Origin: Candidatus Kuenenbacteria bacterium | GTDB taxonomy: Bacteria; Patescibacteriota; Patescibacteriia; UBA11705; JABHMO01 | NCBI GenBank assembly: GCA_013202715.1 | Contig: JABMRF010000007.1 | Coordinates: forward strand, 8,566 to 72,565 | DNA length: 64,000 nucleotides | Reading direction: 5' to 3' | Shown: one piece after another, positions 6,280 to 60,045 of the stretch | Layout: every line of letters starts with the position of its first letter | How positions within the stretch are numbered: position 1 is the stretch's first letter | Made by a program: the position numbers and the translations under genes | The notes under the pieces: generated by a model | What the model saw: the letters and a program-made list of their open reading frames with translations, nothing else | What the model was told of the DNA's origin: nothing | The model's database searches: none

Positions 6280-7419
6280 ATGAAAAGAACACTATTGGTC
6301 ACAATTGATTTTCCGCCAATGTTTGGAGGAGTGGCAAATTATTGGGCAAATTTATGTCGCTGCATGCCAAGCGATAGTTTTGTAGTATTGGCGCAGGAAT
6401 ATGACAATTCCCTAGATTTTGATATCAAGCAAAATTATTTAATATATCGAAAAAATTTAATTTCAAATAATAAATGGCTGTGGCCGAAATGGCTACCGCT
6501 TTTGTATCAAACTTACAAATTAATTCGAAGTGAAAATATAAAGAAACTGGTTGTCGGACATGTCTTGCCAACCGGAACGGTAGCATATATATTAAAAAAA
6601 TTATTACGTGTCCCGTATCTGGTTTCGATTCATGGACTGGACATTGCCATTGCGCAACAGAACAAAAGAAAAAAATGGCTTATGCGAAAAGTGTTTAGTC
6701 AGGCGGAAAAAATTATTACAAATAGTAATTATACAAAAGAACAACTTCTCAAATTGGATTGTTGTGTGAAAGATGATGTTGTTGTTGTCTATCCTTGTCC
6801 GAATAAAACCCTTGGAAAGGGAAGTGAGGAATTTAAACAAAGAGTGTTTCAGAATAATAATTTGCAGAATAAAAAGATCATCTTAACGGTCGGTCGACTG
6901 GTTGAAAGAAAGGGCCATGATAAAGTAATTGAAGCTATGCCTGAGATTTTGGAGAAGATTCCAAATGCAGTTTATATTATTGTTGGTCAGGGGAAGCAAC
7001 TTTCAGATTTAAAAACAAAAGCCGAAGAGATACAGGTAAAAGACAAAGTTTTATTTTTTACAGACATGATGGACAATGAGTTACCTACGTTTTACGAGCT
7101 GGCTGATGTGTTTATCATGCCGTCACGTCAACTTGCCAATGGCGATGTGGAGGGGTTTGGTATAGTCTATTTAGAAGCAAATATCTACGCTAAGCCTGCT
7201 ATTGCCGGAAAGTCCGGTGGAGCAGTTGAGGCGGTAGAGCATAATTTAAATGGATTGTTAGTTGATCCGTTAAATATCAATGAAATCAGCCAGGCAATTG
7301 TTTCAGTTCTTGAAAATCAGACCAAAGCAAAAGAATTGGGGGAGAGAGGGCGTGAGCGCGTAATCGAAAAATTCAATTGGGAAAAACAAGCGGCTGAGTT
7401 AGTGAAGATATTGAGTTAA
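6280..7419 (+). CDS. glycosyltransferase family 4 (GT-B)
   Basis: EGFGIVYLEA…G.P.IA…GG..E.V. motif of GT4 retaining glycosyltransferases. Confidence 0.75.
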   Translation: MKRTLLVTIDFPPMFGGVANYWANLCRCMPSDSFVVLAQEYDNSLDFDIKQNYLIYRKNLISNNKWLWPKWLPLLYQTYKLIRSENIKKLVVGHVLPTGTVAYILKKLLRVPYLVSIHGLDIAIAQQNKRKKWLMRKVFSQAEKIITNSNYTKEQLLKLDCCVKDDVVVVYPCPNKTLGKGSEEFKQRVFQNNNLQNKKIILTVGRLVERKGHDKVIEAMPEILEKIPNAVYIIVGQGKQLSDLKTKAEEIQVKDKVLFFTDMMDNELPTFYELADVFIMPSRQLANGDVEGFGIVYLEANIYAKPAIAGKSGGAVEAVEHNLNGLLVDPLNINEISQAIVSVLENQTKAKELGERGRERVIEKFNWEKQAAELVKILS

Positions 7420-7431
7420 TTAATCATAAAT

Positions 7432-8106
7432 ATGAAAAAATTCGTTCTTGATCTCGGCGGATCAATTGTGGCGCCGGAAAAGTTTGATACTGAGTTTTTG
7501 CAGAAAATGCGAAGTTTGCTGTTGCGTCACATTACAGATAGTCAGTTTTTTGTTGTAATTGGCGGCGGTTATGTTTGCCGAAAATACCTTCAGGGTGCGA
7601 AAAGTGTAACATCCCTTGAGCCAAGTGATTTGGATTGGCTCGGAATTCAGGCCACCAGATTAAATGCCAAATTTTTCCAAACAATAATAGGCGATGCTGC
7701 TTGTTCAGAGATTTTCTTGGATCCAAATGAAATGCCAAAAACTGACAAGAAAATAATTGTTGGTGGGGGATGGGAACCTGGAAATTCAACTGACTATGTG
7801 GCCACCGTCATTGCCAAGAATCAGCAGGTTGATACTTTGGTTGTCCTTACAAATGTGACGCACGTTTACGACAAGGATCCAAACAAATTCGATGATGCTG
7901 AGCAGTTTGATGATATGACATGGTCCGAGCTCAAGGCCATTATTGGCGATGAGTGGATTCCAGGCGCAAAGTTGCCACTTGACCCATTGGCTTGCCAATT
8001 GGCTGAAAAGGCTGGCTTGAAAGTTGTCGTCATGCACGGAGAAAATATCGACAATTTTGAAAAGTTTTTGAATGGTGAGGATTTTGTAGGTACAACAATC
8101 AGCTAG
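7432..8106 (+). CDS. pyrH: archaeal-type UMP kinase (amino-acid kinase fold)
   Basis: LDLGGS…VVIGGG…ARKY…GIQATRLNA…VGGG.PG.STD…LVV.TNV..VY..DP…GTTI(S) collinear with archaeal PyrH (~225 aa). Confidence 0.65.
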   Translation: MKKFVLDLGGSIVAPEKFDTEFLQKMRSLLLRHITDSQFFVVIGGGYVCRKYLQGAKSVTSLEPSDLDWLGIQATRLNAKFFQTIIGDAACSEIFLDPNEMPKTDKKIIVGGGWEPGNSTDYVATVIAKNQQVDTLVVLTNVTHVYDKDPNKFDDAEQFDDMTWSELKAIIGDEWIPGAKLPLDPLACQLAEKAGLKVVVMHGENIDNFEKFLNGEDFVGTTIS

Positions 8107-8208: not shown

Positions 8209-8437
8209 AATAACAACAATAAAACTCCATAGACAGCAGGTGTTCTTTTCAAGAGCTTAATTTCCTGTCGAGGAATAAGTCAACTTAATTAACTCAATTA
8301 ACTTAATTAACTTGAGTTCATGTCTGTGGATGTTTTCACAGATTTTTTTAATTTCGAATTATGGATTTATGTAGATTTTACGGATTAGTTATATCCGCTC
8401 AATCCGCGTTTGATCCGCAATATCCGCGTTATATTAT
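8209..8437 (+). promoter_or_regulatory. rplJ (L10) leader with attenuator hairpin (8323-8350, TCTGTG…CACAGA + U8) and distal ATCCGC word-repeat array
   Basis: 230-nt 5'UTR; terminator-like stem + ATTTTTTT ~90 nt upstream of ATG, as in autoregulated L10 leaders. Confidence 0.5.
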
Positions 8438-9928: not shown

Positions 9929-10085
9929 CCGTCTGACTGGATCAGCAACTATTCAGGTTTGGGTGAAGACAAGTAATGGCTTGATTCACGGTGATGTTTT
10001 TATGGTTCTGAGGTCTGGTGAAACCATAAAACTCGAGGGCGTGATGGTTCCTCCCGAACCAAGACCACAACTGGCTTTTGACTAA
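9912..10085 (+). CDS. hypothetical small β-rich protein (57 aa), overlapping the previous ORF in another frame
   Basis: ORF track 9870..10085; ATG at 9912; possible frameshifted continuation of 9719 ORF. Confidence 0.25.
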   Translation: MKFYHSRLTGSATIQVWVKTSNGLIHGDVFMVLRSGETIKLEGVMVPPEPRPQLAFD

Positions 10086-18121: not shown

Positions 18122-18553
18122 ATGTTTATCGGGCAATACAATTATTCAGTAGATTCAAAAGGCAGGTTAGCTATTCCGGCCAAGTTTCGGTCTGCTTTGA
18201 AATCCGGAGCAGTTGTCACAAAAGGATTGGATAACTGTCTTTTCGTTTACACTAAAACTGAATGGAATACTTATGCCAAAAAATTAGCAGCATTACCAAC
18301 AAGCCAGGCCAATAGCCGGGCTTTTTCTAGATTGATGCTCGCTGGAGCCATGGATGTGAAATTGGATTCACAGGGAAGAATTATGTTGCCTGATTATCTA
18401 AGAGCATATTCAAGTGTAAAGAAAAAGGTTGTCATTGCCGGCTTGTTTAACCGATTGGAAATCTGGGACGAAGCGAAGTGGAATCTTTACAAGAATAGAA
18501 CGGAAAAAGATGGGAATGAAATTGCCGAGCAGTTAGGTGAGCTCGGAGTATGA
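18122..18553 (+). CDS. mraZ: transcriptional regulator MraZ
   Basis: two DxxxR half-domains: VDSKGRLAIP and LDSQGRIMLP. Confidence 0.9.
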   Translation: MFIGQYNYSVDSKGRLAIPAKFRSALKSGAVVTKGLDNCLFVYTKTEWNTYAKKLAALPTSQANSRAFSRLMLAGAMDVKLDSQGRIMLPDYLRAYSSVKKKVVIAGLFNRLEIWDEAKWNLYKNRTEKDGNEIAEQLGELGV

Positions 18554-18728: not shown

Positions 18729-19661
18729 GTGCTAACTATCCACAAGCCGGTTCTAATTAATGAAGTGATTGAGTTTTTGTCTCCCAAGAAAAACCAGAAT
18801 TTTGTTGACTGCACCATCGGTGGCGGGGGACACGCAGAAAAAATATTAGAACTTACCGGGCCAAATGGAAGGCTTCTCGGGATGGATTGGGATCCGGGAG
18901 CAATCAAACTTTCTCGGCATCGGTTAGAAAAATTCAAAAAGCGGCTTGTCTTAGTTAACCATTCTTACATAGAATTAAAAAAAGTAGTGTATGATGAAAG
19001 ATTTTTTCACATTAACGGTATTCTTCTTGACCTTGGCTTATCTTCAGATCAGCTACAAGCTTCAGGACGTGGATTTTCTTTTCAGGTAAATGAACCGCTC
19101 GATATGCGGTATTCACCGGAAGAAAATGAATTTACCGCAGCAGACATTATAAATAAGTGGCCGGAAGAAAAAATTAAAAAAATGCTAAAAGAAAACGCAG
19201 AAGAAGGGCATGCCGGCAGAATCGCAAAGGCGATTATTGAAAGACGTAAAGAAGAGGAGATTAAAACAACATTGGAATTAGTGGCGGTAGTTATCAAAAA
19301 TGTTCCTAGAAAAAGATCCAGAATCCATCCGGCGACAAAAACTTTTCAAGCTTTGCGAATGGAAGTTAATAACGAATTAACAAATGTCCGTTTGCTATTA
19401 AAAGATGTATTGGAAATAATGGAACCTGGTTGTCGCCTGGGAATAATCACATTCCATTCTTTGGAAGACCGGATCGTAAAGCAGTTTTTTAAACATGAAA
19501 GTATTGACTGTCACTGTCCGACTGAAATTCCTGTTTGTAGATGCGAGCACAAAGCGCAGTTGAAATTAATTACGAAAAAGCCGGTGGGGCCAAGTGACGA
19601 CGAAATATCTGAGAATTTTCGTTCTCGAAGTGCAAAATTAAGGGTAGTTGAAAAGCTATAA
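18729..19661 (+). CDS. rsmH: 16S rRNA (cytosine1402-N4)-methyltransferase RsmH (MraW); GTG start
   Basis: HKPVL..E…L……DCT.GGGGH…G…DP.A… + SAM-MTase fold; dcw position. Confidence 0.9.
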   Translation: MLTIHKPVLINEVIEFLSPKKNQNFVDCTIGGGGHAEKILELTGPNGRLLGMDWDPGAIKLSRHRLEKFKKRLVLVNHSYIELKKVVYDERFFHINGILLDLGLSSDQLQASGRGFSFQVNEPLDMRYSPEENEFTAADIINKWPEEKIKKMLKENAEEGHAGRIAKAIIERRKEEEIKTTLELVAVVIKNVPRKRSRIHPATKTFQALRMEVNNELTNVRLLLKDVLEIMEPGCRLGIITFHSLEDRIVKQFFKHESIDCHCPTEIPVCRCEHKAQLKLITKKPVGPSDDEISENFRSRSAKLRVVEKL

Positions 19662-19773: not shown

Positions 19774-20121
19774 ATGACAAGATTCACAAAATCATTGAGA
19801 CCAGAAAAAAATTCTAACCTAAAGCGAAAGGTTAGAAAGCTATCGAAGCCAATTCTTTTGGTGGTTTTGGGGATATTTTTTGTGGGAGCGATTGGTATTT
19901 ATTTATTTCAAATAAATTACATTGCGGCAACAGGATTCCAGATTCGCGATTATGAAAAACAAATTTCTGAATTAACATATGAAAACGAGAAGATTCAAAT
20001 GCAAATAATTGAAATGAAATCTATGACAGATTTGTCAGCCAAGGTTGCTGAATTAAATATGGAACCTGTTGGCCAGATTACTTATTATGATACCAGTGGT
20101 CAGGTTGTGGCGCGGAAGTAG
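19774..20121 (+). CDS. ftsL: cell-division protein FtsL-like (single TM + coiled coil)
   Basis: 115 aa, TM helix then heptad-like region; position after rsmH. Confidence 0.6.
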   Translation: MTRFTKSLRPEKNSNLKRKVRKLSKPILLVVLGIFFVGAIGIYLFQINYIAATGFQIRDYEKQISELTYENEKIQMQIIEMKSMTDLSAKVAELNMEPVGQITYYDTSGQVVARK

Positions 20122-20158
20122 TGACTAGCGAATAGCGAATAGGGATTAGTGATTAGTT

Positions 20159-20184
20159 AAAAGCCTGTAGAAGGGGCTTTTTTG
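20159..20184 (+). terminator. rho-independent terminator (AAAGCC-loop-GGCTTT + U)
   Basis: after ftsL. Confidence 0.65.
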
Positions 20185-20219: not shown

Positions 20220-20300
20220 GAATTGTTGAATGGTTCTTTTGACTGATCTCTCGACTGCGCCTTTTCGAGGGCTTCGCTCGAGATCTAGGAGGAGGTGAAC

Positions 20301-20621
20301 ATGTCTGAAAAATGGTTATTTGTGACCAGGCATATGTACGCACTTGTAAATGGTAAATTGAAATCTCGTCCCCGCATGACATCTTTTGGTACGGTTAGTG
20401 GTGAAGAATTGGAAGCAATTTTCGAAGAGCATGGTCTGGAAAAAGAGTCATCGGCATCTGATCCTGATACGGGAGAGCCGTTGTATTTACCCGAAGGAAC
20501 CAAGCTCGAAGAAGTGGATGGGAAATTGGTCATCACACTGGGCAGCGATGTGACAATGAAAGAAGGCGCTTGTATTTACGGGTTCAAAATCACTGAAGTT
20601 GACGGTCCTGAAGAAGATTAA
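20301..20621 (+). CDS. hypothetical acidic protein (106 aa), SD-bearing, compositionally GC-richer
   Basis: ATG 20301 with GGAGGAGG 8 nt upstream; own promoter and terminator. Confidence 0.5.
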   Translation: MSEKWLFVTRHMYALVNGKLKSRPRMTSFGTVSGEELEAIFEEHGLEKESSASDPDTGEPLYLPEGTKLEEVDGKLVITLGSDVTMKEGACIYGFKITEVDGPEED

Positions 20622-20635
20622 ACTTGTTGATTGAA

Positions 20636-20668
20636 ATAATCCTCGCCACGCGGGGATTTTTTTGTGGA
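20636..20668 (+). terminator. rho-independent terminator (AATCCTCGCC-ACG-CGGGGATT + U7)
   Basis: hairpin + TTTTTTTG. Confidence 0.7.
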
Positions 20669-20695
20669 ACAAATTAGAGCCGTAGTAGGTTTTCT

Positions 20696-20908
20696 AAACG
20701 GGGGCTCCATAGTCCCTTTGAAGCTAGACCCGTCCTTTGAAATCGGGATAGGAAGAATGAATAGCGAAGAAGGGCTGTGGAGTCCTTTTTGGGATGTTAT
20801 AAAAGCGACTTGGAAGTTTTTTAAATATCTCCAACAGGACTCCACAGCCTGTTCTTCGTTTCACTTCGAACAGGACTATGGAGCCCTCATTAAAGTAATT
20901 CTCCGTTT
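20696..20908 (+). ncRNA. candidate structured RNA / MITE-like element with two nested 21-bp helices (each: 14 perfect bp + 1x2 internal loop + 7 bp)
   Basis: 20702-20715↔20873-20886 and 20772-20786↔20836-20849 perfect complements; 20716-23↔20864-70 and 20765-71↔20852-58 extend both; ~47% GC; weak ORF potential only. Confidence 0.4.
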
Positions 20909-20984
20909 AGTATTATCGGCCCCTTTTAGTAGATGAGGACTTGATAAATATACAGTTTTGTAGTACCATTGACTAGAAAAGCAT

Positions 20985-22112
20985 ATGTATAAACTAAACG
21001 CAAAAAAATCAAATTCTCGCCGTGGCGAGTTGACCACTAGAAAAGGGGTAATTCAAACCCCTTGTTTTATGCCGATTGCGACCAAGGGAGCAATTAAAAC
21101 TATTACTGCAGATGAGGTTCGCGAGTTGAGTCCGGACGTTATCCTTGGCAATACCTATCATTTGATGCTGAGACCTGGCTCAGATGAGATCAAGGACCTC
21201 GGAGGTCTGCATCGGTTTATGGACTGGGAAAAGCCGATTTTGACCGACTCAGGTGGCTTTCAGGTTTTTTCATTGGCCAAAATACGAAAAATCACTGCCG
21301 AAGGCGTTAAATTCAACTCACATATTAGCGGTAAAGAATTTTTTATGTCGCCGGAAGACTCAATAAAGATTCAAATGAATATCGGCTCAGACATTATGAT
21401 GGTTTTGGACGAATGTGTGGAATTGCCCGCTGAGCGTTCATATTTAGAAAAATCAGTTGATTTGACCACAGTTTGGGCGAAGCGTTGCAAGGATTTTCTT
21501 CTCAATCAACCAATCAACCAGTCAACCAATAAACCTTTGCTGTTCGGAATCGTACAAGGGGGACTGGAATCGGATTTGCGAAAGAAGAGCGCCAAAGATC
21601 TGGTTGAAATCGGATTTGACGGCTATGCGATTGGCGGACTTTCGGTCGGCGAAAGTGAACAAGAAATGTGTTCAACTTTGGATTTTACTTGTCCTGAACT
21701 GCCAGAAAACAGACCGCGATATCTAATGGGAGTTGGCTATCCTCATCAAATTGTTGAGGCTGTTAAACGTGGAATTGACATGTTTGATTGTGTGATCCCT
21801 ACCCGCGAAGCGCGGCACGGCCGTCTTTATCTCTGGAATGATTTATTTCTTGAATCTGATAGAAACATCCTTGATCTGGGCGAATTTAGCAAGGAATTCT
21901 ACAACACTATTAATATCAAAAATGAAGAGTATAAATTTGATTTAAAACCAATAAACTCAAACAGTAAATTCCCTGAACTGCAAAAATATTCCAAAGCTTA
22001 TTTGCGGCATCTGTTTGTTACGGAAGATCCATTGGCGCAGCGATTGTCAACTTTGAATAATTTGGAATTTTATTTGGGCTTAATGGAGAAAATCAGAAAA
22101 GATATTCAATAA
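20985..22112 (+). CDS. tgt: queuine tRNA-ribosyltransferase, zinc-site Cys replaced
   Basis: …LTDSGGFQV…YLMGVGYPHQIVEAVKRGIDMFDCVIPTR.AR.G.L… catalytic motifs present; C-terminal CxCxxC replaced by NSNSKF. Confidence 0.85.
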   Translation: MYKLNAKKSNSRRGELTTRKGVIQTPCFMPIATKGAIKTITADEVRELSPDVILGNTYHLMLRPGSDEIKDLGGLHRFMDWEKPILTDSGGFQVFSLAKIRKITAEGVKFNSHISGKEFFMSPEDSIKIQMNIGSDIMMVLDECVELPAERSYLEKSVDLTTVWAKRCKDFLLNQPINQSTNKPLLFGIVQGGLESDLRKKSAKDLVEIGFDGYAIGGLSVGESEQEMCSTLDFTCPELPENRPRYLMGVGYPHQIVEAVKRGIDMFDCVIPTREARHGRLYLWNDLFLESDRNILDLGEFSKEFYNTINIKNEEYKFDLKPINSNSKFPELQKYSKAYLRHLFVTEDPLAQRLSTLNNLEFYLGLMEKIRKDIQ

Positions 22113-22683: not shown

Positions 22684-23379
22684 ATGAGTTTTAAATTCAA
22701 GGGCTTAGAGGGTTTTCAGGAAGAGATTCTCAATTACTTGAACGGAAAAGATTGGTGTTTATTGACTGATATTGTGAATACTGTTTTCAAAGACATTCAC
22801 ATAACAGCAGCATTAGTAACTGCAGAAAAGCGTCTTGAAGAATTGTGTGACAGGGGATTGGTAAGAAAGAGCGGAAAAGATAAATATATGATTTGTATTG
22901 ATCATGCTCGTCGGCTTGAGGTCAGAGTTGAACCGCAAGTAGTGAGATATCAGAATGATCCTCTTTCTCCAACCATAACAGCTCATCATGTTCTGGTTGA
23001 AGATGATCTCGGCCTTTTGCGCGAAATGCTGGCCAGGGAAAATGAAGTTGAGGCGTTCAAGCGTGGCTGTCAGGCAATGGCAAGTTTTTCCGGTGTGCAG
23101 TTGATTTTTGATCCGGAAACCTTTGATTATAAACAGATTTATGTTGCGCCAAAATGTGAAAAAGTTGAACTGCAAGTTGGGACCAAAATATTGGGTTCGC
23201 CTGAACTTGATTGTTTTCCGGAAATTGAAATTTATTTGGTTACAGTTTGCGATGATAATGGAGAATGGCAGGAAACATTTGGCTGTAGAAATGAGCTGAA
23301 TGCCTTTGTCCGCGGCTGCAAAGCTGTATGCTCATTTGCAGAAGTTCGCTTGGAAATAACACCGGAGTTTGAACGCTAA
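22684..23379 (+). CDS. hypothetical protein with internal ~25-aa duplication (EAFKRGCQAMASFSGVQLIFDPE / NAFVRGCKAVCSFAEVRLEITPE)
   Basis: 231 aa, GGGAGG SD; no family recognised. Confidence 0.5.
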   Translation: MSFKFKGLEGFQEEILNYLNGKDWCLLTDIVNTVFKDIHITAALVTAEKRLEELCDRGLVRKSGKDKYMICIDHARRLEVRVEPQVVRYQNDPLSPTITAHHVLVEDDLGLLREMLARENEVEAFKRGCQAMASFSGVQLIFDPETFDYKQIYVAPKCEKVELQVGTKILGSPELDCFPEIEIYLVTVCDDNGEWQETFGCRNELNAFVRGCKAVCSFAEVRLEITPEFER

Positions 23380-23389
23380 GGAGGAAAAA

Positions 23390-23689
23390 ATGGCTATCAG
23401 TCCATCAGATGTAAATCCCCTGTCCCCGGAAGATTTGGCGATTGTGCTTCGTTGGGAGAGCGTTATTGACGCTGAGCTTTACAACGAAGAAGATCGCAGG
23501 AATAGTGGAACTGCTCGAATAAAGATTTTATACGAAGAAGGCGAGGAAATACAAGGAACATATATGGACAGATTCACGGAGTTGGAGCGCAGATATCGCA
23601 GGGCCGGTTGGCATGTTGAACGATCTGCTCGAGACTCTGGGCCGGCTTTGGCTATTTGCGTCAACGAACATTGGAAAGCAAATTGGTAA
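23390..23689 (+). CDS. hypothetical protein (99 aa)
   Basis: AAGGAGG SD 7 nt upstream of ATG 23390; translationally coupled to previous. Confidence 0.45.
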   Translation: MAISPSDVNPLSPEDLAIVLRWESVIDAELYNEEDRRNSGTARIKILYEEGEEIQGTYMDRFTELERRYRRAGWHVERSARDSGPALAICVNEHWKANW

Positions 23690-23812: not shown

Positions 23813-24133
23813 ATGCAAGATGATAAATGGCATGATATTTTAGACAGAGTCAAAGAGCAGTTTGAGATTCAGATGCAGGAGACTGAGCCTCATTCTAATA
23901 TAGAACGCGGCCAGGTTGAAACCGTGATTTTTGAGTCGCCTATTGGTAGAATTAAACTGGTCAGAACGACTACGCCGAGAGTTCTTGATAAGAAAACAAT
24001 CTATTCAGCTCGCGCAGGTAGCGACATGAACGTTCAATATGAATATTCTAAAACAGAATATGTGCACGATTTAAAAATATTCAAATGGGATGATGTCCGG
24101 GACGACTGGGTAAATGCTCGTTTTGAAATATAA
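23813..24133 (+). CDS. hypothetical protein (106 aa)
   Basis: preceded by extended -10 TGCTATACT (23760-68). Confidence 0.45.
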   Translation: MQDDKWHDILDRVKEQFEIQMQETEPHSNIERGQVETVIFESPIGRIKLVRTTTPRVLDKKTIYSARAGSDMNVQYEYSKTEYVHDLKIFKWDDVRDDWVNARFEI

Positions 24134-29606: not shown

Positions 29607-29681
29607 GGCCCCATCGTCTAGTGGTTAGGACGCATGGTTCTCATCCATGTAACCGGAGTTCGATTCTCCGTGGGGTCACCA
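29607..29681 (+). tRNA. tRNA-Glu (anticodon CUC)
   Basis: cloverleaf: acceptor GGCCCCA/TGGGGTC, D-arm CGTC-AGTGGTTA-GGAC, anticodon stem CATGG/CCATG loop TTCTCAT, T-arm CGGAG-TTCGATT-CTCCG, encoded CCA; starts 1 nt after murF stop. Confidence 0.85.
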
Positions 29682-58854: not shown

Positions 58855-59348
58855 TAATTTGATTATAGCAAATTTTCACAAAAAAAATAGCACCGGCTAT
58901 TTTGTGCAATCCTTGTTTGTCATTTCTCTTGGTTTGACCCAGTGATTTCAGGCTTTTTATCACCTGTTATTTGGTGTCCAGTGACCAGTATGACGGGATT
59001 GCAACGAAGCTCGGTGCTCTGTTTGGTTTGCTGCGCGACGGGTCGTGGCGTCTTCTCGCAGACTAAGATCCCTAGTGGGTCTCTTCCGTGTTCGGACTAA
59101 TTGTCAGTAACTCTTGGCATCGCCCTCCTTTTTGAATTCGAAGCCAGGATGTAAGATTGTGCCCACTTTTCACATGGGCACAAGCATTGTAACGAATTAT
59201 TTTCTCAATGTCAATCGCTTTTGTGGATAAAAAAAAGAGCGCTGAGGTGAATCAGCGCTCGAGGTGCGGTTTTTAGCCGCAAATCATAGTTTGCCTCCCT
59301 GTTTCTTGATGCTCTTGTCCTTATCAGGACCTAGATCAGTGACTGCAT

Positions 59349-59415
59349 TATAGCATACACATGGGCCTTTGTCAAGACCCTGAGCGACTAGCAGGAGTCG
59401 AAGGGTCAAGGCCTT
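59349..59415 (+). repeat. direct repeat copy 1 (~65 bp: …TTATAGCATAC…TTGTCAAGACCCTGAGCGACTAGCAGGAGTCGAAGGGTCAAG + U-run)
   Basis: hairpin GACCCT-GAGCGACTAGCAGGAGTCGA-AGGGTC followed by TTTTTT; matches 59798-59865. Confidence 0.7.
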
Positions 59416-59797
59416 TTTTAAAAAAAAATGGAGCATCACGATGATCGTGATGCTCCGGTGAAGATACCCAGGGTCTAGCCTATCCTGGGATGGCTCGACT
59501 GGCACGTCCTTCAAAACGTACTATGCCGCTACAGTCATTCTACGAGGTCTGTAGTTCTCGTCACGCTCTCGCCGGATTGCGCTCTTTTTCTCGTTTGTGT
59601 TGACGGATGGGATGTTCCGTCTTGGTCAGGTCCAGGTCATTATCCATGTCCTCCTGTGGAAGGGGTATGGCCGTTCCCGAAGCTTCAAACTTCGGGCAGC
59701 CTGTCCGTTTGCGTTAGGGCCAGTGCATACCGTCCTCTCGTCGTTCGGGCCTTTGGCGATGTCTGTCTGAAGCTTCTAACTTCTTGACATGTAACCG

Positions 59798-59865
59798 CAT
59801 TATAGCATACTTTTGTAATCTTGTCAAGACCCTGAGCGACTAGCAGGAGTCGAAGTGTCAAGTGC
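59798..59865 (+). repeat. direct repeat copy 2 (hairpin-terminator module)
   Basis: 47/50 identity to copy 1 over the hairpin core; followed by TTTTTTT. Confidence 0.7.
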
Positions 59866-60045
59866 TTTGTGTTTTTTTCTCTAAAATTAGATAAATGTTT
59901 ACTTTTAGATTCCAATCGAAACGTAGATTGTTTTGCAAGTCATAGACAAAATTGTCAAATTTGGTATAATTCATTCAAGAAAACAAAAAAGCATGAAAAC
60001 AAGAACTCAGCCTGAAGGATTCATTGTTTTTTTGTTTTTTACTAT

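Follow-up and report, generated by a model that had tools for sequence, protein, structure and literature searches.

The 64,000-nt window analysed here, from a Candidatus Kuenenbacteria contig (JABMRF010000007.1, positions 8,566 to 72,565), carries between an ftsL-like gene and tgt an element at 20696-20908 that, judged from its sequence, is very probably an inverted doublet of repetitive extragenic palindromes (REPs). REP doublets of this kind that form hairpins are known as REPINs, and are proposed to be mobilised by REP-associated tyrosine transposases (RAYTs) (PMC3116915); the element also resembles a bacterial interspersed mosaic element (BIME). We assign it to a RAYT-associated REP family of Patescibacteria, the candidate phyla radiation (CPR). 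The family is scattered through ultra-small groundwater bacteria, where it flanks its own REP-type transposase gene. The original prediction for this DNA, made from the letters alone, had proposed a 6S-like rod RNA, a novel small RNA (sRNA), or a miniature inverted-repeat element. The last of these came closest in that the element is probably mobile repeat DNA, but because the repeat flanks a gene for a RAYT of the Y1/HUH type, its class is that of a REP doublet (REPIN) and not of a classical miniature inverted-repeat transposable element (MITE).

The four helix arms of the element are versions of a single unit of ~25 nt in alternating orientation, each with the core GGRCTCCAYAGYCC and a TTCTTCG-like extension. 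Arms 1 and 4 bear CTCCATAGTCC, and arms 2 and 3 bear CTCCACAGCC. As predicted, the arms form exact reverse complements: the outer pair consists of GGGCTCCATAGTCC (20702-20715) and GGACTATGGAGCCC (20873-20886), and the inner pair of GGCTGTGGAGTCCT (20773-20786) and AGGACTCCACAGCC (20836-20849). One arm of each pair had been quoted a base too long (15 rather than 14 nt), a trivial correction, and both inverted repeats were also recovered by a repeat search of the window. The 7-bp stems said to continue each helix beyond a small internal loop are likewise present, the inner one perfect (CGAAGAA/TTCTTCG) and the outer one with a single G.U (TTTGAAG/CTTCGAA), giving two nested helices of ~21 bp each over 20700-20886. 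A single sequence makes up both REPs, once in each orientation, which lets arms 1 and 4, and likewise arms 2 and 3, pair without a mismatch; the two nested, identically designed helices are thus an automatic result of inverted hairpin repeats. Moreover, the two arm variants differ by transitions only, and pairing of arm 1 with arm 2, through G.U or G.T pairs, is possible too. With "T form" denoting the strand that reads CTCCATAGTC...GGGCTGTGGAG, the parts of the element are as follows.

20702-20723, + strand: 5' strand of the outer helix, comprising the REP A 5' arm and its extension; pairs with 20864-20886
20703-20785, + strand: REP hairpin A, classified by the T/C-form pattern as T form on the + strand
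20765-20786, + strand: 5' strand of the inner helix, comprising the REP A 3' arm and the extension CGAAGAA; pairs with 20836-20858
20786-20836: AT-rich spacer of 51 nt between the inverted REPs, the apical region of the nested rod
20836-20858, + strand: 3' strand of the inner helix, comprising the REP B 5' arm as read on the + strand, TG and TTCTTCG
20837-20885, - strand: REP hairpin B, which takes the T form when read on the - strand and the C form on the + strand
20864-20886, + strand: 3' strand of the outer helix, comprising the extension and the REP B 3' arm as read on the + strand

Hairpin A has the 5' arm GGCTCCATAGTCC(C) at 20703-20716 and the 3' arm GGGCTGTGGAG(TCC) at 20772-20785. The 3' half of its apical segment, AGCGAAGAAGGG, is identical to that of a long-stem subfamily found in contigs L175 and L184. 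Hairpin B reads GGACTCCACAGCC (20837-20849) ... GGACTATGGAGCC (20873-20885) on the + strand, with a 7-bp apical stem (CCTGTTC/GAACAGG) and a 13-nt loop, and its 5' flank, TTAATGAGGGCTCC, recurs at site 6813 of L188. Folded as single-stranded DNA (ssDNA), the + strand of the doublet reaches -53.3 kcal/mol (z = -10.7), and this rod is far more stable than hairpin A (-13.6 kcal/mol) or hairpin B (-11.0 kcal/mol on the + strand, with two C.A mismatches) alone. On the - strand, hairpin B folds at -14.6 kcal/mol (z = -5.5).

The same rod is the minimum-energy structure of 20680-20920 folded as RNA (-107 kcal/mol, z = -9.4, + strand), the - strand reaches -92.4 kcal/mol (z = -8.6), and none of 200 shuffles folded as well. 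Could the element be a stand-alone structured non-coding RNA (ncRNA) gene, 6S-like or a new sRNA, with a promoter of its own? The strong predicted structure, on both strands, and the intergenic position between a terminator and a promoter speak for such a gene. However, an interspersed RAYT-flanking repeat, present in two inverted copies, accounts for the fold in full, no convincing promoter lies ahead of the element, and the element is not conserved in syntenic relatives. Rfam yielded no match to it at gathering score and no 6S RNA even at E <= 10, where the matches on the element were spurious plant and animal microRNA hairpins. The 6S proposal is therefore not supported, nor is that of a novel sRNA: the element is missing at the syntenic site in each of the close relatives covered, and its arms are a repeat present in at least 120 unrelated contigs. 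We consider an ncRNA gene very improbable. The element is richer in G+C than its surroundings (44-46% against 37.9% for the window, roughly the 90th-95th percentile of 213-nt windows), although the contrast had been overstated at 47% against 35%.

How widespread is the repeat? Searches with the element by blastn and nhmmer recovered only itself in 83 Tgt-anchored loci and in the close relatives (1.4 Mb of relatives' loci, syntenic interval included), apart from a 15-nt seed match in L019, a Candidatus Kuenenbacteria metagenome-assembled genome (MAG) with 52% Tgt identity. There, an intergenic tight hairpin is made from the same two arm variants, GGCTCCACAGCCC-taagag-GGACTATGGAGCC, with a further half-site 730 nt away. 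A profile built for nhmmer from seven 29-nt units was too weak for use. A single scan of metagenome contigs of the Joint Genome Institute (JGI) with CTCCAYAGYC-N{3,33}-GGRCTRTGGAGYC, on the other hand, matched at least 120 contigs (679 kb), and the family counts that follow refer to sites and contigs among the matches listed. Many contigs carry several hairpin sites, up to five or six each. A search of a phage database with the element gave no match, and a scan of viral contigs with a degenerate hairpin pattern gave two candidates, both of which we rejected as unrelated perfect-palindrome terminators.

The sites share a distinctive design. In 78 unique sites the consensus is yGCTGG-CTCCATAGTCC(C)-variable stem-loop-(G)GGCTGTGGAG-CC-N4-TGC, in which G holds position -5 in 96%, T position +7 in 94% and G position +8 in 91% of the sites. 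Every REP forms an imperfect hairpin. Its basal stem, ~13 bp long and fixed in sequence, includes two fixed non-Watson-Crick positions, which are G.T if the T strand is read and C.A if its complement is; the second of them may also be taken for a bulged T. Doubly mismatched arms account for 215 of 259 strand matches (129 CC/AA and 86 TT/GG), and both hairpins of the window carry this doubly mismatched basal stem. Fully Watson-Crick hairpins are rare (~6 of 259), lie on high-GC contigs and look like chance terminators. The apical stem varies in length and sequence but keeps its pairing through co-variation (for example CCC/GGG, GGC/GCC, TGC/GCA and TCC/GGA): 106 distinct inner segments have a mean of 3.64 consecutive Watson-Crick pairs from the base, compared with 2.22 in shuffles, whose maximum over 1000 rounds was 2.42. 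None of 16 multi-copy REP loci had an Rfam match.

The sites favour intergenic DNA. Although open reading frames (ORFs) of at least 100 aa make up 83% of the bases, 55 of 85 sites (65%) fall outside them. Sites between co-directional genes number 26, with 4 between convergent and 1 between divergent genes, and they lie a median of ~77 nt after the upstream ORF. The T strand coincides with the sense strand of the upstream gene in 22 cases and opposes it in 19. This absence of bias fits recognition at the level of DNA and argues against RNA-level selection as the source of the strand asymmetry.

Doublets in T-then-C order, with spacers of 18-120 nt that are unrelated in sequence, occur in L115, L161, L168, L187 and L197, and each folds into the same nested two-helix rod. 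The presence of the same doublet and rod in five other contigs identifies the element of the window as a REP doublet of the REPIN/BIME type. Local rearrangements were also seen among the REPs. The 5' half GCTTTGCTGGCTCCATAGTCCGAA stands twice in tandem in L166 (1290-1350), L168 has a rearranged site at 1346-1360, and L208 repeats whole REP hairpins at 50-nt spacing (128-203). In L019, the REP half-site (25 nt, 7306-7330) and the full hairpin (8034-8058) are in direct orientation and 92% identical. Between them, ~2 kb upstream of tgt, lies a flavodoxin-like ORF of 191 aa, an arrangement with a cassette-like look.

When the ORFs of the at least 120 contigs were clustered, the commonest family was a protein of ~180 aa, found at 13 loci among the matches listed, with REP hairpins directly on both sides of its gene. 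The protein matches Pfam Y1_Tnp (PF01797) at 31-36 bits (cutoff 23) and the NCBIfam model NF047646 for REP-associated tyrosine transposases at 106.8 bits (cutoff 80); on the NCBIfam IS200 transposase model it scores 25.1 bits (cutoff 55). Among proteins of solved structure, E. coli TnpA_REP (4ER8, E = 8e-5) is the relative that matches it best. At E <= 1e-20 it has 587 homologues, and the named ones are mostly from Patescibacteria (Pacebacteria, Doudnabacteria and Parcubacteria). JGI annotates several as 'REP element-mobilizing transposase RayT', and the RAYT of L192 is identical to P0186, assigned by NCBI to Candidatus Doudnabacteria.

As an independent check, two RAYT homologues in NCBI genomes of Patescibacteria were picked by protein similarity alone, without the DNA pattern. 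Both genes, P0195 (GCA_018897195.1) and P0172 (GCA_004321885.1), are flanked by the same REP family. The neighbours of the RAYT gene are uvrC/uvrB in L221 and pyrG and a sugar transferase gene in L223, a REPtron-like arrangement. Where both flanks could be read, at least six loci have the T form to the left and the C form to the right of the RAYT gene. The doublet of the window has this same T-then-C order, with its REPs only 51 nt apart. In L221, the two RAYT-flanking REP sites are the only ones within 20.5 kb. At 9930-9985 that locus (GCA_018897195.1) has one more hairpin, GGCTCCACCGGGACGCGGTTGCATGGAGCC, placed after the upstream REP and ahead of the start of the RAYT; it has diverged but is similar in design, and suggests that decayed REP copies lie beside the transposase gene.

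By analogy with E. coli TnpA_REP and the IS200/IS605 paradigm, we propose that the hairpins would form in single-stranded DNA, where the RAYT would bind them through the mismatched stem and the foot nucleotides. Cutting and rejoining by the RAYT would then disperse REP and REPIN copies into intergenic DNA.

Several points weigh against reading the element as a REP doublet of this family. The source contig is 203,828 bp long and we covered ~82 kb of it (the window plus L217 and L219, which add ~18 kb); those ~82 kb hold no second REP copy at up to 2 mismatches per arm and no RAYT gene. Many near-identical copies, named in the original prediction as the sign of a MITE rather than an RNA gene, were found across metagenomes, in at least 120 contigs, but this genome contributes one doublet only in the ~82 kb. 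Most of the sampled family sites are singlets and not doublets. The metagenome matches were chosen by the DNA pattern itself, an ascertainment bias that is partly offset by the genomes chosen by protein. In the copy of the window, flank positions -4 and -3 of both hairpins, as well as +8 of hairpin A, do not match the family consensus, and the apical segment of hairpin A is atypically long at 55 nt (20717-20771). Finally, described REP superfamilies have a GTAG / GT[AG]G or CGTC foot (PMC3733652, PMC6006769), which is not present in the flank consensus of the 78 unique sites; what is conserved there is (Y)GCT, adjoining the stem on its 5' side, and, on its 3' side, TGC at +7 to +9. Atypical feet are, however, known for some TnpAY1 subclasses (PMC6006769), so that a non-GTAG foot points to a different REP class and does not set the family apart from REPs.

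The alternative of a classical MITE, derived from an insertion sequence with a DDE transposase and bounded by terminal inverted repeats and a target-site duplication, would account for a short, non-coding element with inverted repeats at its bounds that is absent in relatives. Yet no direct repeat or target-site duplication brackets 20696-20908, the imperfect hairpin is of a subterminal type and flanks a Y1/HUH gene rather than a DDE gene, and single hairpins are the commonest form of the family. An origin of this kind is, in our judgement, hardly probable.

The neighbouring genes and sites in the window are as follows.

18122-18553: mraZ
18729-19661: rsmH
19774-20121: FtsL-like gene
20301-20621: 106-aa gene with a promoter-like site of its own
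20638-20658: terminator-like hairpin, a consensus match only
20941-20969: promoter-like site, a consensus match only
20985-22112: tgt

The terminator said to precede the element and the tgt promoter said to follow it are therefore both there, as consensus matches only, with the rod ~40 nt past the former and ~55 nt ahead of the latter. In relatives with 71-76% Tgt identity, the order mraZ-rsmH-ftsL...tgt is kept and the ftsL-tgt interval is variable, with the following contents.

L004 and L095: no gene
L084: a 207-aa gene on the opposite strand
L092: genes for 106a, 106b and a 178-aa protein
L096: genes for an HD protein, 106a, 106b and a 110-aa protein

The 106-aa gene of the window is the orthologue of 106a (68% identity). 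Neither the element nor its core motif occurs in the ftsL-tgt interval of these relatives. In three further contigs of the same population the element is identical, and its orientation is the same in all four. We also considered descent from a decayed gene and rejected it: tblastn found no remnant of the 106b, 110-aa or 178-aa genes in the element. Most likely, the copy in the window is a passive insertion into a permissive, variable intergenic interval, and possibly a decaying one. The insertion would have fallen downstream of the terminator of the 106-aa gene and upstream of the tgt promoter, and any local effect, such as extra termination or insulation, would be secondary. We see no hint of a role for the element in tgt or cell-division biology.

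A REP origin is compatible with later exaptation as a cis-acting RNA or DNA structure. In the gap that separates tgt from the 106-aa gene it could serve, for instance, as an insulator or a back-up bidirectional terminator, or else as a 3' mRNA stabiliser. The latter role has been reported for some enterobacterial REPs. Such use would suit a very stable rod placed so closely between a terminator-like and a promoter-like site, and it would suit the preference of the family for gaps between co-directional or convergent genes shortly after an upstream ORF. The same intergenic placement has been reported for REPs (PMC3733652). On the other side, neither strand has a U-run after the rod, the sites take no preferred strand with respect to transcription (22 vs 19), and relatives do without the element at the same site. 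We regard exaptation as unlikely.

Two further explanations come close to being untenable. The first is an invertible DNA switch, in which a site-specific recombinase flips a promoter that lies between nested inverted repeats. The perfect, nested repeats of 14-21 bp just upstream of tgt would be apt for this, but the four independent contigs show one orientation, no recombinase is encoded nearby, and the same arms form tight hairpins with loops of 3-5 nt in hundreds of places, where inversion would be meaningless. The second holds that the 90-aa ORF overlapping the element (20664-20936) is a real protein-coding gene. The ORF exists, as predicted, and was called by two gene-calling pipelines (L002, L003). 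It has no Pfam family, however, no similarity to neighbouring proteins of relatives, and no match but its own identical sequence among 5.8 billion proteins, and the REP doublet spans it.

The surroundings of tgt have further features of their own. Three unrelated 106-aa families without a Pfam match ('106a', '106b' and '106c') recur around tgt in Kuenenbacteria-like relatives, at the following positions.

Window: 20301-20621, 23369-23689 and 23813-24133
L092: 2524-3179 and 5811-6131
L096: 8884-9539 and 11954-12274

Identity is 55-86% for the conserved families 106a and 106c; the window lacks 106b and has the REP doublet in its place. Right after the stop codon of the ftsL-like gene lie tandem GCGAAT-type short repeats, TAGCGAATAGCGAATAGGGATTAGTGATTAG at 20122-20160 in the window and CGCGAAT...CGCGAATGACGCGAAT at 9860-9900 in L004, possibly a conserved motif for protein binding or for the 3' end. 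Just before its GGAGG ribosome-binding site, the 106-aa gene has in its 5' leader a long hairpin, GATCTCTCGA...CGAGGGCTTCGCTCGAGATC (20238-20290), that could be a cis-regulatory structure. The terminator stem CTCGCCACGCGGGG (20642-20660) is 79% complementary over 19 nt to CTCGCCGTGGCGAG (21011-21029) in the early codons of tgt, 350 nt away, probably by chance. Several MAGs, among them L004 and L005, have a Patescibacteria-like Tgt and gene order and are titled 'uncultured Gammaproteobacteria bacterium'; these titles are likely wrong.

Elsewhere in the window, ~1.2 kb at 58855-60045 (6555-7745 of L217) contain no called gene and gave no Rfam match at gathering score. On one side of the segment is a gene for an N6/N4 DNA methyltransferase on the - strand, on the other a TP_methylase gene. 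At gathering score, the sole Rfam matches in the window are a ribosomal protein L10 leader (8209-8359, 61.9 bits) and a tRNA (29607-29678).

What does a REP doublet add to our picture of these bacteria? For annotation, it removes a false ncRNA candidate and a false call of a 90-aa gene. Beyond this, it supplies a consensus with which this REP family and its RAYT can be searched for in CPR/Patescibacteria, hosts with tiny, repeat-poor genomes; our literature search found no article coupling REP, REPIN or RAYT with REP sequences of CPR bacteria. The fixed non-Watson-Crick pair and the non-GTAG flanks lead to testable predictions on how this clade of RAYTs recognises and cuts its substrate. In other respects this is an ordinary selfish or domesticated repeat, a known kind of miniature mobile DNA in a new host group. 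What is worth keeping is the consensus, the non-GTAG flanks, the two fixed non-Watson-Crick positions and the breadth across CPR lineages.

A broader proposal is that the family represents an undescribed Patescibacteria-wide class of REP and RAYT, with a GCT 5' foot, TGC at +7 to +9, and a 13-bp stem that is near-invariant across RAYTs 55-70% identical to one another, in host lineages that bear the names of separate candidate phyla (Kuenenbacteria, Doudnabacteria, Parcubacteria and Pacebacteria). We give about equal weight to the existence of such a class and to its absence. If it exists, the transposase and its hairpin would either have spread horizontally again and again or have been kept together for a very long time in streamlined genomes of ~1 Mb.

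Among known systems, 6S RNA (Rfam RF00013) has a comparable rod-like fold of ~190 nt. The internal loop here is one-sided, with ~40 nt on the 5' side and ~5 nt on the 3' side, and not a central bubble; moreover, the element is not conserved in relatives and is built from an interspersed repeat. IS200/IS605 elements and their PATE-type derivatives share with this family a Y1/HUH transposase and the absence of a target-site duplication, and their subterminal imperfect hairpins, recognised as ssDNA, would correspond to the REP hairpins. Unlike in that group, the flanking hairpins here are mostly inverted and not direct, the gene lies between housekeeping genes, and the protein fits the RAYT model (106.8 bits) far better than the IS200 model (25.1, below the cutoff of 55).

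The REP/BIME system of E. coli with TnpA_REP (PDB 4ER8; Messing et al. 2012, PMC3479197; Ton-Hoang et al. 2012) shares mismatched imperfect palindromes, pairs in alternating orientation, and a transposase gene flanked by REPs (the REPtron). TnpA_REP contacts a C:A-containing mismatch or bulge in the E. coli REP stem, and repair of this feature abolishes binding (PMC3479197). The two fixed C.A/G.T positions of the Patescibacteria family are a parallel to it. The family differs in having no 5' GTAG foot and an unrelated stem sequence, and its RAYT is only distantly similar to the E. coli enzyme.

The REPINs of Pseudomonas fluorescens SBW25 (Bertels and Rainey 2011, PMC3116915) likewise consist of a pair of inverted repeats around a non-conserved spacer, and the pair folds into one long hairpin. 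As here, they lie outside genes, the RAYT gene is flanked by the repeat itself, and singlets and doublets coexist. In contrast to SBW25, singlets predominate in our sample, copy density is low, with one doublet in ~82 kb, and the repeat resides in the small genome of a CPR bacterium. In addition, each REP here is a complete hairpin of at least 13 bp, so that the doublet forms two nested helices, which brings it closer to the BIME of E. coli.

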